From assembly GCF_965208475.1 (NCBI RefSeq), contig NZ_OZ242338.1, positions 630,760 to 694,759 on the forward strand: a DNA stretch of 64,000 bases, written 5' to 3'. The notes beneath the pieces were generated by a model. The model did no database searches and was not told where the DNA came from. It saw nothing but the letters and a program-made list of their open reading frames with translations. The translations under genes were made by a program, and so were the position numbers. Source of the stretch: Candidatus Poriferisocius sp. GTDB lineage: Bacteria; Actinomycetota; Acidimicrobiia; Acidimicrobiales; Bin134. The number at the start of each line of letters is the position of its first letter. The first letter of the stretch is position 1. This document shows, piece after piece, positions 9,105-27,645 of the stretch.

Positions 9105-10622
9105 TCAGCCTAAGCGCTGGCGGAGGCGGAACTTCTCCACTTTGCCGTTACCGGTTCTAGGGAGTTCATCTATTGGCTCGATGGTGGTGGGCACCTTGTA
9201 GGGGGCCAGGGTGCCGTCGGTGTGGGTTCGCAGATCATCCTCAGTGGGGAGATCGCAGCCGTCGGCTACCACGATGAAGGCGGCCACCGTCTCGCCCAAC
9301 ACGGGGTCGGGGCGGGCTACCACGGCGATGTCGGCCACTGCGGGGTGGGTGCGGAGCGCGGTCTCCACCTCTATGGTGGACAAATTCTCTCCGCCTCGGC
9401 GGACGATGTCCTTTTGGCGGTCCACGAAATAGAGGTAGCCGTCGTCGTCCACGTAACCCAGGTCGCCGGTGCGGAACCAGTCGCCCGAGGTGGCCGCCTG
9501 GGTGGCTTCGGGATCTTCGATATAGCCGCTGAAGCCGATGGTGGACCGCAGGAAACAGATCTCCCCCGTCTCACCCGTCGGGGCCTCTGAGCCGTCGGGC
9601 AGGAAGATCCTCAGCACCGATCCCTCGAACGGCTTGCCCACCGAGCCAGGTCGGCGGGGCTCGTCCAGGCGGGTATAGGTGCCCGATCCGGCTTCGGTCA
9701 TTCCGTACCAGTCCATGCACGGCACCCCGTAGCGCTCTTCGATCTGCTCGATGATCGGAGCACAGCCCAGCGGGATCATCACCCGCAGCGAGTGTGATCT
9801 CTCGTGGGGACCGGGTGGCTGGGCCATCAAGATGTTGATGATGGGCACCAGGGTGAGGAAGTAGGTGGGGCGGTAGAGATCGACCAAGGCCCAGAAGCGC
9901 GACGCGGAGAATGTGCGCTGCATGACCACGCTGGCCCCCCGGCTGAGCGCCGACATGGCCCCGCCCATGGCGTTGCCGTGGAACAGCGGGGTCACCACCA
10001 GCGACCGGTCGGTATGGCTCAGGCCGAACATCTCCTCATAAGGCACCGCTCCCCCGGCGAACAGCTCCGGGCTCATCGGCACCGCCTTGGGCCTTCCGGT
10101 GGTGGTGCCCGAGGTGTAGAGCACGTTGCCCTCCACGAACCCGTCCACCGGGGGCAGATCCAGACCAGCGCCCTCCGGCGCCTCGCCGATGAGGTCGGCC
10201 AGCAGCAATGCCCCGTCCACCGGCTCGTCCACGCTCACCACCGCCTCGACCGCGTCCATACCCGCGGTCAGGGCGATGGCCCGCTCGGCCCGCTCAGCCT
10301 CGGCGAACACCAGACGGCATCGGGAGTGGTTGAGCACGAACTCCAACTCTGGATCGGTCCACTCCGGGTTGATGGGCACCCCGGCCAAGCCGATGGCCTG
10401 CATTCCCAGTTGGCACTCGATGTATTCGGGGCGGTTTTGCATCCAGATACAGGCTCGATCGCCCAAGCCCAGACCAAATCGGGTATGGAACTGGTGGGCC
10501 AGGGCCCCGCCGTGGGCAGCCAGCTCGCGGTAGGTGCGGTGACCGTCCTGCTCGGTGAGCACGGCCAGCTTGTCGGGCCAGGTGCGGCTGAAGTCCCGGA
10601 CGACGTCGTACAAGGTCGGCAT
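9105..10622 (-). CDS. AMP-dependent acyl-CoA synthetase/ligase
   Basis: 505 aa with LYTSGTTTGRPKAV, YGMTEAG, WFRTGDLG and GKVEK motifs. Confidence 0.9.
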   Translation of the reverse strand: MPTLYDVVRDFSRTWPDKLAVLTEQDGHRTYRELAAHGGALAHQFHTRFGLGLGDRACIWMQNRPEYIECQLGMQAIGLAGVPINPEWTDPELEFVLNHSRCRLVFAEAERAERAIALTAGMDAVEAVVSVDEPVDGALLLADLIGEAPEGAGLDLPPVDGFVEGNVLYTSGTTTGRPKAVPMSPELFAGGAVPYEEMFGLSHTDRSLVVTPLFHGNAMGGAMSALSRGASVVMQRTFSASRFWALVDLYRPTYFLTLVPIINILMAQPPGPHERSHSLRVMIPLGCAPIIEQIEERYGVPCMDWYGMTEAGSGTYTRLDEPRRPGSVGKPFEGSVLRIFLPDGSEAPTGETGEICFLRSTIGFSGYIEDPEATQAATSGDWFRTGDLGYVDDDGYLYFVDRQKDIVRRGGENLSTIEVETALRTHPAVADIAVVARPDPVLGETVAAFIVVADGCDLPTEDDLRTHTDGTLAPYKVPTTIEPIDELPRTGNGKVEKFRLRQRLG

Positions 10623-18088: not shown

Positions 18089-19123
18089 ATGGAATATCGC
18101 ACCCTGGGGGGCTCTGGGGTCCAGGTGAGCACCCTGTGCCTCGGCGCCATGATGTACGGCCCCGCGGGCAACAACGATGAGGCCGAGTGCGCGGCCATGA
18201 CCCACGAGGCGCTGGACGCCGGGATCAACTTCATCGACACCGCCGACCGCTACAGCATGGGCATCTCTGAGGAGATCGTCGGGCGGGCCATCAAGGGGCG
18301 GCGCGACAGCGTCGTGGTGGCCACCAAGTTCTACGGCCCGATGGGCGACGACATCAACATGCAGGGCGGCTCCCGCCGCTGGGTGACCCAGGCCGTCGAA
18401 GACAGCCTGCGCCGCCTCGACACCGACTACATCGACCTCTACCAGATGCACCGCCCCGACCCCCGCACCGACTTCGGCGACACCCTGGCCGCGCTCACCG
18501 ATCTGGTGCAAGCCGGCAAGATCCGCATGATCGGAACCTCCACCTTCCCAGCCGAGCTCATCGTGGAGGGCCAGTGGGCCGCCGAGCGCCGCAGCCTGGA
18601 GCGAGTCCGCTGCGAGCAGCCCCCCTACTCCGTATTCACCCGGGAGATCGAGCGGTCGGTGCTGCCCACCTGTCAGGCCTACGACATGGGAGTGATCGTG
18701 TGGAGCCCGCTGAACGGCGGCTGGCTCACCGGCAAGTACCGCAAAGACGCCGACTGGCCGGAGAACTCAAGAGCAACCCGCAACCTGGTCAGTGCCAAGC
18801 GCTGGGATCGGGACAACCCCGTAGTGGCCCACAAGCTCGACCTGGTAGAGGAACTCGACGCCCTGGCCAACGATGTCGGCTGCTCCATGGCCACCCTGGC
18901 CTACGCCTTCACCCTGGCCCACCCCGCAGTTACCTCCACCATCATCGGCCCCCGCACCCCCCAACAACTCGACGCTGCCCTCGAAGACCCCGACCTCCGC
19001 CTCACCGAGGATGCCCTCGACCGGATCGACGAATTAGTACTCCCCGGAACCGACCTAAACCCCGACGACGCCTTCTACATCCCCCTAGCCGTCTCAAATC
19101 CCGCTATACGACGAAGAAAGTAA
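18089..19123 (+). CDS. aldo/keto reductase
   Basis: MEYRTLGGSGVQVSTLCLGAMMYG, INFIDTADRY and YIDLYQMHRPD motifs. Confidence 0.9.
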   Translation: MEYRTLGGSGVQVSTLCLGAMMYGPAGNNDEAECAAMTHEALDAGINFIDTADRYSMGISEEIVGRAIKGRRDSVVVATKFYGPMGDDINMQGGSRRWVTQAVEDSLRRLDTDYIDLYQMHRPDPRTDFGDTLAALTDLVQAGKIRMIGTSTFPAELIVEGQWAAERRSLERVRCEQPPYSVFTREIERSVLPTCQAYDMGVIVWSPLNGGWLTGKYRKDADWPENSRATRNLVSAKRWDRDNPVVAHKLDLVEELDALANDVGCSMATLAYAFTLAHPAVTSTIIGPRTPQQLDAALEDPDLRLTEDALDRIDELVLPGTDLNPDDAFYIPLAVSNPAIRRRK

Positions 19124-26195: not shown

Positions 26196-27056
26196 GTGAA
26201 TAGTCTGAGGCGCCGCCGGGGCCGGCGATCGTTGGGGTTTGCCGCCGCGGGCCTAGCCCTAGCTCTGGCCCTCCTCGCGGCGGCCTGCGGAGACACCGAG
26301 ACATCGACGATCGACAGCGCCGGGTTGGAAACGGCGCCCACTGCCGCATCAAGCAGTACACAAGCCCCTGATCGGCCCGAAGGCGAACCCGCCCCTGCCT
26401 CCGAGTCGGGCTCCACCCAAGAATCCGCCTCCACCCCTTCGCCTGCTGCCACCCAAGCCCCACTGCCAACCCCTGTCTCGACACCGCTGCCCACCACCGA
26501 CCCCGCAACGGAGCCGACACCGCTACCCGCCCCTGAGTCCCCGGCGGAACCGGCGCCGGAGCCCCCGCCGCCCCCCACCCCAGAACCGCCACCGCCACCC
26601 CCGCCGCCTCCCACCCCGGAACCGCCACCGGTCCCCGATTCAGATCTGCCCTCGGTGGAGGTGGTGAATGTGGCCACTGGGGCCACGGTGAACCTGGCCG
26701 GTTTCGCGCCGGCTGATCGTCCCATAGTGCTGTGGTTCTGGGCCCCCCATTGATCCACCTGCAACCGGGAAGCCCCCGGCGTCGAGCAGTTCGCTCGACA
26801 AAACGCCGACAAGCTCACCGTCGTCGGAGTGGGAACCCAGGACTCCCTGGGACAGGCCGAAGATTTCGTGAGCCGCCACGGAACCACATTCACCATGCTG
26901 TGGGACCGGACATTCCAATCCTGGAACCAGCTGGGCATAACCGGCCAGCCCGCTGGGATGCTCATGAACCGCTACGGTCAGATCATCGACCAGTGGAGGG
27001 GCGACATCCCCCGCGGCCAGGTTCTGGACGCCGTAGCAGAATTGAGCTCAACCTGA
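26196..27056 (+). CDS. TlpA/ResA-like thioredoxin-fold lipoprotein, probable selenoprotein (UGA at 26751-26753 read as Sec)
   Basis: The ORF track splits it into 26196-26753 and 26829-27056, which are in the same frame. Lipobox LLAAAC and a Pro-rich linker. VLWFWAPH-TGA-STCNREAP aligns to WAxWCxxCxxEAP. Clear thioredoxin-fold sequence continues after the TGA. Confidence 0.7.
26759..26789 (+). promoter_or_regulatory. SECIS-like hairpin downstream of in-frame UGA (copy 1)
   Basis: Stem CCGGG (26765-69), loop AAGCC, stem CCCGG (26775-79), with an outer CTGC/GCAG pairing. The stem begins 14 nt after the U of UGA. Confidence 0.45.
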
Positions 27057-27057
27057 C

Positions 27058-27645
27058 ATGAATCTGCCCCGAGCACCCAGAACCCGGCTCATAGCGCTTG
27101 CCATCGCCGTGGCCCTTGGGGCCGCGGCTTGCGGCGACAGCACCGCCCCTCCCACCGCCACACCGGCAACCACAGCCCCGACCGAGGCCCCGGCCCCGGC
27201 AGCCGAATCGGCGCCGCAGACCGAGGCCCCGGCCCCGGCGTCAGATCTGCCGTCGGTGGATGTGGTGGATTTGGCCACTGGTGACACGGTGAACCTGGCT
27301 GGTTTCGCGCCGTCTGATCGTCCCATAGTGCTGTGGTTCTGGGCGCCCCATTGATCCACCTGCCGCCGGGAAGCCCCCGGCGTCGAGCAGTTCGCTCGAA
27401 AGAATGCCGACAAGGTCACCGTCATCGGAGTGGGTGCCCAAGACAGCCTTGGGCTGGCCCAAGCCTTCGTTCAGTCCACCGGAACCACCTTCACCATGCT
27501 CTGGGATTCGACATTTGAATCTTGGCGACAGCTGGGTATTTTCGGTCAGCCCGCAGGGATACTGCTGGACCGCAACGGCGCAATCCTCAGCTCATGGCGA
27601 GGCGGTATACCACAGAGCCGGGTGCTGGAAGCCGTCGGCGCCTAG
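27058..27645 (+). CDS. TlpA/ResA-like thioredoxin-fold lipoprotein, probable selenoprotein (UGA at 27352-27354 read as Sec), tandem paralog
   Basis: The ORF track splits it into 27058-27354 and 27430-27645, which are in the same frame. Lipobox ALGAAAC. VLWFWAPH-TGA-STCRREAP. The start is 1 nt after the upstream stop. Confidence 0.7.
27360..27390 (+). promoter_or_regulatory. SECIS-like hairpin downstream of in-frame UGA (copy 2)
   Basis: 7-bp stem CGCCGGG (27364-70), loop AAGCC, stem CCCGGCG (27376-82), with an outer CTGC/GCAG pairing. The stem begins 12 nt after the U of UGA. Confidence 0.5.

Follow-up and report, generated by a model that had tools for sequence, protein, structure and literature searches.

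Predicted selenocysteine codons in two tandem TlpA-like lipoprotein genes of Candidatus Poriferisocius

Described relatives and the tandem gene pair

Thioredoxin-fold proteins in which selenocysteine (Sec, U) replaces the first Cys of the CxxC motif, a TlpA-like family among them, are already known; three such UxxC families were predicted from the Sargasso Sea and Global Ocean Sampling (GOS) metagenomes, and those catalogued are the 'Thiol-disulfide isomerase-like protein' family (cd02966 TlpA-like/PF13905), the 'Prx-like thiol:disulfide oxidoreductase' (PF00578), and the 'Redoxin family protein' (PMC13188914, PMC9312934). In this study, we analysed a 64-kb stretch of DNA from Candidatus Poriferisocius sp. 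(hereafter the window), which carries two tandem TlpA/DsbE-like genes, copy 1 and copy 2, each with an in-frame TGA that very probably encodes Sec. As judged from the descriptions of the catalogued families (MGB1650493.1, MAK15852.1, MBA3499694.1), the pair shares with them (i) the TlpA-like fold, (ii) predicted Sec in place of the nucleophilic Cys, (iii) a hairpin of the selenocysteine insertion sequence (SECIS) type within the open reading frame (ORF), and (iv) the existence of Cys homologs, and differs from them in that its products are predicted lipoproteins with the motif WFWAPH-U-xx-C-RREAPGVEQFAR, in that Sec is nearly fixed among the matching Acidimicrobiia genomes, and in that databases hold the proteins as fragments only. 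Likened in this way, by description, the pair most likely belongs to one of the catalogued thioredoxin-fold UxxC families or to a sister subfamily. The principles of Sec decoding are unchanged by this case; what is new is the lineage, the near-fixed predicted Sec in matching Acidimicrobiia genomes, the tandem Sec-Sec pairs, the apparent fusions with two UGA codons, the invariant candidate SECIS, and the systematic misannotation. The parts of the two genes are as follows.

26196-27056, plus strand: copy 1, TlpA/DsbE-like prolipoprotein gene; GTG start, stop TGA at 27054-27056, 286 codons including Sec (translation)
26286-26288, plus strand: putative lipobox Cys of copy 1 (..LLAAA-C-GD), by inspection, preceded by a basic n-region RRRRGRR and a hydrophobic core
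26751-26753, plus strand: predicted Sec codon of copy 1, an in-frame TGA giving the U of U-S-T-C, aligned to the first Cys of CxxC
26760-26762, plus strand: resolving Cys codon TGC of copy 1 (sequence)
27058-27645, plus strand: copy 2, TlpA/DsbE-like prolipoprotein gene; ATG start, stop TAG at 27643-27645, 195 codons including Sec
27130-27132, plus strand: putative lipobox Cys of copy 2 (..LGAAA-C-GD), by sequence inspection
27352-27354, plus strand: predicted Sec codon of copy 2, an in-frame TGA (sequence)
27361-27363, plus strand: resolving Cys codon TGC of copy 2 (sequence)

Both copies read ..DRPIVLWFWAPH-TGA-STC(N/R)REAPGVEQFAR... A sequence-only reading of this DNA had reported VLWFWAPH-TGA-STC(N/R)REAP in both paralogs, followed by about 100 open codons, and had taken the genes for probable selenoproteins; when the frames were read again the motif was confirmed in both places, with the frame open for 100 codons past the TGA in copy 1 and for 96 in copy 2. 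The ATG of copy 2 lies 1 nt past the copy 1 stop, so that a single operon probably holds both genes. The translation of copy 1 shows a putative signal peptide, then a Pro/Thr-rich linker that is long, and the thioredoxin-fold domain that carries the UxxC motif. Identity between the copies past the TGA is 73.9% for nucleotides and about 68% for amino acids; of 97 codons compared, 43 are identical, 23 differ synonymously, and 31 nonsynonymously, which bears out the earlier estimate of about 70% identity with many synonymous changes.

The sequence past the TGA was also claimed to complete a thioredoxin fold, and this holds, as matches to AhpC-TSA, Redoxin, and Thioredoxin_8 all span the TGA. The family test was a match to PF08534, PF00578, and PF13905 above the gathering score. 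With U replaced by C, copies 1 and 2 scored 44.8 and 49.1 bits for Pfam AhpC-TSA (gathering score 26), 43.2 and 46.9 for Redoxin (26.6), and 31.5 and 32.8 for Thioredoxin_8 (27). Across the TGA, residues 151-266 of copy 1 match AhpC-TSA at 1.4e-11 and Redoxin at 4.3e-11, and copy 2 matches them at 6.8e-13 and 3.3e-12. Both proteins carry the active-site W-C-x-x-C followed by E-x-P, with U as the first Cys, as well as the cis-Pro loop. A signal peptide that ends at a lipobox with an invariant Cys is the PROSITE-type rule for lipoproteins; by eye, both copies have a basic n-region, a hydrophobic core, and ..AAA-C-GD, position -3 being Ala and not Leu, and in copy 1 the Pro/Thr-rich linker after the lipobox exceeds 100 residues. 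These features suggest that the copies are lipoproteins on the outer face of the membrane, and each gene is predicted to code for a thiol-disulfide oxidoreductase of the TlpA/ResA/DsbE type with a thioredoxin fold, exported and held by a lipid anchor.

Among proteins of solved structure, the closest matches were Mycobacterium tuberculosis DsbF (Rv1677, 3IOS, 2.8e-16) and DsbE/MPT53 (Rv2878c, 1LU4, 1.3e-13), which are likewise actinobacterial secreted or lipoprotein TlpA-like proteins with WFWAPWC-xx-C-xxEAP and a QPA cis-Pro loop; WAPH-U-STC-RR-E-A-P and GQPAG of the pair align with WAPWCPTCQGEAP and QQPAY of DsbF, placing U at the first Cys. They differ from the pair in having Cys and not Sec, identity over the aligned domain being about 35-40%, and both reportedly act in vitro as oxidants, whereas for the pair a reductive role is suggested by the CcdA genes that adjoin some of its orthologs. 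With Bradyrhizobium TlpA, Bacillus ResA, and CcmG/DsbE, the reducing branch that serves maturation of cytochrome c and cytochrome oxidase, the pair would share a membrane-tethered extracytoplasmic thioredoxin fold with CxxC followed by E-x-P, and some of its orthologs adjoin CcdA and one SURF1. It differs from that branch in that no cytochrome c biogenesis genes lie near the pair in the window and in that NCBIfam scores fall far below the equivalog cut-offs: 29.9 bits against 230 for TlpA (NF047696), 41.7 against 170 for ResA (NF002854), and 37.5 against 123 (TIGR00385) and 33.2 against 359 (NF011941) for DsbE. Both proteins are predicted to function like the TlpA/ResA/DsbE families without being members of the NCBIfam models. 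The WAxxUGC ResA-like selenoprotein (NF041054) is also TlpA/ResA-like with a WAxx-U motif, but its motif is U-G-C (UxC) as opposed to U-S-T-C here, and the two copies score 23.6 and 19.3 bits against its cut-off of 300.

Conservation of the TGA and of the RNA hairpins after it

Relatives were collected in two steps, the window and the first 86 fetched loci, then the best 77 loci of a genome scan that took one genome per GTDB species and found 324 relatives; the 163 related loci amount to about 1.81 Mb of fetched DNA. At the site in question, 189 of the 207 family hits have TGA, 18 have TGC or TGT, and none has TAA or TAG. The ratio was 82 TGA to 17 TGC/TGT hits in the window plus the first 86 loci and 107 TGA to 1 TGC in the best 77 loci from species-representative genomes, a recurrence of the in-frame TGA that rules out a chance pattern. 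Nearly all TGA-type hits have an open frame of about 94-102 codons after the TGA, and an exact-protein look-up gave three divergent orthologs (48-57% identity) that keep both the TGA and the intact downstream frame; relatives that end at the TGA and carry a degraded frame beyond it, which the sequence-only reading had named as the case that would speak against it, are therefore not what is seen. The labels of the best 77 loci are almost all Acidimicrobiia, Acidimicrobiales, or Actinomycetota, with two Acidobacteriota and a few given as 'bacterium', and the groups represented are Poriferisocius, Ilumatobacteraceae, Microthrixaceae, and unnamed Acidimicrobiales; NCBI taxonomy places Candidatus Poriferisocius in Acidimicrobiia, Acidimicrobiales, Candidatus Hopanoidivoransaceae.

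In an alignment with eight Cys homologs, and in further full-length homologs (WFWAPH-C-xx-C-RREAP, 43-56% identity), U stands opposite the first Cys of CxxC; WFWAPH-C-xx-C is found in all of the full-length relatives. The claim that TGA replaces the nucleophilic Cys of the TlpA/ResA motif is upheld by these homologs and by M. tuberculosis DsbF and DsbE. Purifying selection past the TGA, likewise proposed from the two copies, was assessed by the ratio of nonsynonymous to synonymous substitution rates (dN/dS), using Nei-Gojobori counting on 164 distinct Sec-type genes in a codon alignment guided by MAFFT. For close ortholog pairs dN/dS was 0.18 downstream and 0.14 upstream of the TGA, and for copy 1 against copy 2 it was 0.32 downstream, values that are not near 1. 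The amino acid invariance of EAPGVEQF in the metagenome hits was discarded as evidence, the motif itself being a search pattern; the evidence kept in its stead comes from synonymous sites and from the genome scan, in which the upstream pattern was used as well.

The RNA after each UGA folds into two successive hairpins, listed below, the U of UGA being base +1.

26765-26779, plus strand: copy 1 hairpin 1 (CCGGG-AAGCC-CCCGG), starting 11 nt past the TGA (RNA fold)
26781-26799, plus strand: copy 1 hairpin 2 (GUCGAGC-AGUUC-GCUCGAC), the best SECIS candidate, with G39 and U40 in the apical loop (RNA fold)
27364-27382, plus strand: copy 2 hairpin 1 (CGCCGGG-AAGCC-CCCGGCG), 7 bp and thus two pairs longer, starting 9 nt past the TGA
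27383-27399, plus strand: copy 2 hairpin 2 (UCGAGC-AGUUC-GCUCGA), a SECIS candidate (RNA fold)

In copy 2, the 65 nt after the TGA fold at -25.8 kcal/mol (z = -2.64), and none of 200 shuffled sequences was equally stable. Hairpin 2 has the form UCGAGC-AGUUY-GCUCGA at +32 to +48, with 34 nt between UGA and loop, and among 170 distinct sequences the synonymous sites of its codons, +10 to +15, are frozen: GTC in 139 of 143, GAG in 162 of 162, CAG in 169 of 169, GCT in 168 of 170, and CGA in 139 of 166, the same amino acids being written with mixed codons elsewhere within the gene. The proportion of synonymous differences (pS) between close pairs is 0.06 in the hairpin 2 stretch against 0.20-0.25 in its flanks. 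The frozen codons are no artefact of the search because the amino acid patterns were back-translated degenerately. The core 13-mer of hairpin 2, GAGCAGTTYGCTC, occurs 178 times in the 1.81 Mb of fetched DNA, always within this TlpA-like Sec gene family.

Pairs 32-48 to 37-43 of hairpin 2 are retained in 132-145 of 145 sequences, and the few changes that occur are mostly compensatory: pair 33-47 is C-G in 140 sequences, U-A in 4, and U-G in 1, and pair 31-49 changes in a compensatory manner from G-C (43) to C-G (10). Hairpin 1 also shows a compensatory change across orthologs, CCGGG/CCCGG to CCUGG/CCAGG. Measured against resamples of synonymous codons, the mean z is -2.0 for hairpin 1 and -3.0 for hairpin 2, with control segments near 0, and the Cys-type homologs have z near 0 and no excess structure, apart from two loci, L012 and L011. 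The hairpins are therefore under selection at the RNA level, in UGA-type genes only. A SECIS prediction after each TGA had been proposed as a check, and a conserved stem-loop is present there in both copies and absent from the Cys-type homologs other than those two. As formulated for bSECISearch, a bacterial SECIS is a stem-loop shortly past the UGA whose apical loop has a conserved G; hairpin 2 fits this description and is a candidate element. The SECIS of Escherichia coli fdhF has its loop G-U at +23/+24, a bulged U, and a minimal element of 17 nt. Like it, hairpin 2 lies within the ORF just past the UGA, has an apical G-U, and is of similar size to the minimal element, whereas its G-U is at +39/+40, a separate hairpin occupies the intervening 28 nt, and it has no bulged U.

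Loci L012 and L011 have TGT at the U position (L012:3106 and L011:3106) and both still read EAPGVE(E/K)FA; both hairpins survive in L012 and one in L011 (z = -4.0 and -1.9, respectively, relative to synonymous resamples). Both genes look as though Sec had recently been converted to Cys and the SECIS were now decaying, and as such the two rare converts offer a natural series for SECIS loss.

The bases next to the UGA are also unevenly used. C follows the UGA in 129 of 170 Sec-type sequences, and a C in this position makes for a weak termination context. For the His that precedes the UGA, 132 sequences use CAT and 35 use CAC, against the high-GC codon usage elsewhere. Together, these two preferences point to context selection around a recoded stop (26748-26756 and 27349-27357 in the window).

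A side observation on the pair itself concerns the stretch that begins 37 codons ahead of the TGA and ends 20 codons past it (26640-26810 and 27241-27411): its nucleotide identity between the copies is about 92%, as compared with about 69% beyond, and dS between the window copies is 0.15 upstream, 0.09 in the SECIS stretch, and 0.85 downstream. The SECIS does not account for the low dS upstream, a pattern suggestive of gene conversion within the pair. Most Poriferisocius relatives instead have EAPGL(E/D)QLAR in their upstream copy. About 55 nt past each TGA (26806-26827 and 27407-27428), the sequence holds a third predicted stem-loop (CCGACAAG..CACCGTCGTCGG), which coincides with an opposite-strand match in the terminator scan; the promoter and terminator scan of the window otherwise gave nothing informative.

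Decoding of the UGA codons

The alignment of UGA with Cys, the conservation of the TGA, the dN/dS values, and the hairpins all support the original proposal that the genes are selenoproteins and not pseudogenes, and we consider it very probable, on these sequence data, that the UGA codons of both copies encode Sec. The course of events that we infer, with Sec insertion, export, and lipidation as well as the substrate and the direction of redox flow, would be the following: (i) at the UGA, an element in the downstream mRNA would recruit SelB-GTP-Sec-tRNA(Sec), so that Sec is inserted in place of termination, the recruiting element being hairpin 1 followed by the sequence-invariant hairpin 2 with G-U in its loop; (ii) the full-length prolipoprotein would be exported and receive its lipid by acylation of Cys31 in copy 1 or of Cys25 in copy 2, and the Pro/Thr-rich linker would hold the enzyme off the membrane; (iii) outside the cytoplasm, by analogy with TlpA and ResA, the selenolate would attack a substrate disulfide, and the Cys three residues on would resolve the intermediate, leaving an intramolecular selenenylsulfide; and (iv) re-reduction would probably be by a membrane electron carrier of the CcdA type, as suggested by the operonic CcdA of distant orthologs, not by the window.

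Several points weigh against Sec insertion. As for the RNA, the outermost pair 31-49 of hairpin 2 is mismatched in about 60% of sequences, classical covariation support for this hairpin is thin because it is almost invariant, its loop G-U at +39/+40 lies farther from the UGA than in E. coli fdhF, and no Rfam family matches the TGA regions (window scan, E <= 10 over both). As for the machinery, ARAGORN and Rfam detected tRNA-Pro only and no tRNA-Sec in the 64-kb window, and neither SelA, SelB, SelD, nor tRNA-Sec was found in the window and the 163 related loci (about 1.8 Mb; tblastn with E. coli queries, ARAGORN). Furthermore, bin134, a metagenome-assembled genome (MAG) that is 90% complete, is listed with SelD = 1 but SelA = 0 and SelB = 0 (Slaby et al. 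2017, PMC5649159 Table S4). All of the evidence for Sec is drawn from sequence.

Bin134 belongs to the Sva0996 group of sponge symbionts and is the source of one ortholog locus (L095); it is also the closest relative of the window's organism in the Aplysina study (PMC5649159). The same table lists four COG0243 'typically selenocysteine-containing' dehydrogenases for it and partial Sel sets for several further bins as well, for which reason MAG incompleteness is the simplest reading of the gap, although the point still counts against Sec insertion. Elsewhere in the Acidimicrobiia, OM1 bin76 has SelA, SelB, and SelD (PMC5649159 Table S4), and all 84 complete genomes of Actinomarina, from another order of the class, are reported to have selA, selB, selC, and selD (bioRxiv 10.64898/2026.04.03.716425). 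A protein search seeded with E. coli SelA returned enterobacterial clusters only, its reach not extending to Poriferisocius, and the literature gave nothing specific when searched for selenocysteine in Poriferisocius or Hopanoidivorans. Two related MAG contigs with the TlpA-like Sec gene carry a second candidate selenoprotein gene, L125:18795-20099 (plus strand, TGA at 19089) and L136:2372-1458 (minus strand, TGA at 2033). Both encode AhpC/TSA proteins with the in-frame TGA in W/S-U-P-Y-C, joined in L125 to a PAP2 domain; once C is substituted for U, they match Pfam AhpC-TSA across the TGA at 4.2e-24 (L125) and 6.2e-11 (L136), and they resemble the known 'Prx-like thiol:disulfide oxidoreductase' UxxC family. 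The presence of such a second candidate supports Sec use in those two genomes.

An improbable alternative, though it survives better than the others, is SECIS- and SelB-dependent recoding of the UGA to Cys, by a tRNA(ReC)-type tRNA with CysRS or by Cys-tRNA(Sec) under selenium shortage, in which case the product would be an ordinary CxxC TlpA-like protein. All of the sequence evidence is equally compatible with insertion of Sec or Cys, SelA is absent from the list for bin134, and tRNA(ReC) decodes UGA as Cys given a downstream SECIS, according to the passage of PMC13582414 that cites Vargas-Rodriguez et al. 2018. The same list, however, also lacks SelB, which tRNA(ReC) needs, and yet includes SelD; a mutation of TGA to TGY would suffice to encode Cys, yet TGA is kept in 107 of the 108 species-representative hits; the few TGY converts lose the hairpins, with remnants kept in L012 and L011; and no tRNA(ReC) was seen in the approximately 1.8 Mb of fetched DNA. 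We give a similarly small probability to the broader idea, hinted at by the absence of SelA and SelB from the COG table of bin134, that canonical SelA and SelB are truly missing from the Poriferisocius/Sva0996 lineage, which would decode the UGA noncanonically, through tRNA(ReC)-like Cys recoding or a divergent Sec system missed by current models.

Readings in which the TGAs terminate translation fare worse still. That the genes are pseudogenes or decaying duplicates would agree with the fragments annotated by gene callers and PGAP and with the window's lack of any Sec machinery gene found; it is nevertheless very hard to reconcile with the same-codon TGA in 189 family hits with an intact downstream frame, with a downstream dN/dS of 0.18-0.32, with the complete lack of TAA and TAG at the site, and with Pfam domains that span the stop. 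Just as little probability attaches to the view that the halves are separate polypeptides, an N-terminal lipoprotein stub and an internally started C-terminal fragment, with the conserved hairpins serving re-initiation or mRNA stability. Conserved RNA structure could in principle have such another purpose, and in some orthologs an ATG or GTG stands two codons past the TGA, hence the called fragments that start with 'MCRREAPG'. In the window and most orthologs, however, the codons after the TGA (TCC ACC, CCC ACC, and others) are not start codons, the C-terminal piece would have neither a signal peptide nor the nucleophilic residue, the thioredoxin fold would be cut within its active site, and the hairpins vanish when TGA becomes TGY, save for the remnants in L012 and L011. 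Least probable of all is general read-through or reassignment of UGA, for example to Trp or Gly, with no special element needed: reassignment has precedent in some bacterial lineages, but TGA is the commonest ordinary stop in the window, where it ends 21 of 37 confident long ORFs, so that recoding is local and not genome-wide, the scan of the window gave no further convincing gene with an in-frame TGA, and the homologous residue is Cys, not Trp or Gly. Two places in the window where a single TGA separates ORFs of the same frame, 47582 (plus strand) and 62390 (minus strand), were rejected as ordinary adjacent genes with a Met soon after the stop and no Cys-aligned motif.

Genomic context, annotation, and variants in relatives

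In the window, the pair is flanked by a branched-chain amino acid ATP-binding cassette (ABC) transporter upstream and a convergent gcvT downstream, neither of which is informative, and no CcdA/DsbD_TM gene adjoins it. Among the distant orthologs, a CcdA/DsbD_TM gene lies directly downstream on the same strand in L125, L137, L149, L155, L164, and L165, and of these six, two pass the Pfam cut-off while four score below it. In one sediment lineage (L003:9204-9974), the gene immediately before the Sec-type gene is SURF1, which serves cytochrome oxidase assembly, and in eight loci a gene for an extracytoplasmic function (ECF) sigma factor lies upstream of the Sec-type gene. These neighbours weakly favour a reducing, TlpA/ResA-like role fed by CcdA, and those coding for SURF1 and the ECF sigma factor are possible clues to substrate or regulation. 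In L147, L148, L151, L153, and L156, the upstream region holds both the ECF sigma factor gene and a gene for a protein of about 600 residues.

Gene callers had been expected to split each gene in two, and this is the case: the Prokaryotic Genome Annotation Pipeline (PGAP) and other callers give a 98-residue 'hypothetical protein' and an approximately 95-residue 'TlpA family protein disulfide reductase'. One such entry, P0036, a 98-residue 'hypothetical protein' from Candidatus Poriferisocius sp., matches the N-terminal fragment of copy 2 at 100% identity. A search for homologous proteins gave dozens of clusters, in which the N-terminal fragments end exactly at ...WFWAPH and the C-terminal ones, some of them named 'TlpA family protein disulfide reductase', begin just past the TGA; since it returned no full-length entry with U and none named selenoprotein, Sec-type genes are present in public protein sets as fragments only. 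Among the Acidimicrobiia genomes and metagenome contigs that were fetched, which come from sponge symbionts, sediments, soils, lakes, and mats, the two-fragment calls would thus hide a predicted exported selenoenzyme, and a simple model built on the signature WFWAPH-U-xx-C plus UCGAGCAGUUYGCUCGA could repair the annotation. If the UGA codons are read as Sec, its near fixation (107 TGA against 1 TGC), together with frequent tandem duplication and even apparent fusion, implies an advantage of selenium chemistry for an extracytoplasmic thiol-disulfide enzyme, as well as a selenium requirement of abundant sponge symbionts.

Further variants of the gene were observed among relatives. In L153 (TGAs at 10112 and 10880), a 255-codon ORF from the first TGA runs into the second, so that the tandem domains appear to be fused into one protein with two UxxC motifs and a Pro-rich linker; P0282, L033, L050, L061, L078, L079, and L085 are listed alongside it. 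Other orthologs have long C-terminal extensions, such as an extra domain of about 120 residues in P0037, P0267, and P0276. In two MAGs labelled Acidobacteriota (L133:10112 and L145:10106), the motif is WFWAPW-U-TIC-NREAPGVEQFAR, a variant that could reflect mis-binning, mislabelling, or horizontal transfer. Finally, in six freshwater or mat loci (L042, L045, L051, L053, L062, and L063), a Cys-type paralog with WFWAPW-C-VIC-RGEAP lies 0.7-1.2 kb downstream of the Sec-type gene, for example at L042:3106 (Sec-type) and 3848 (Cys-type), and predicted Sec and Cys versions therefore coexist in one locus.

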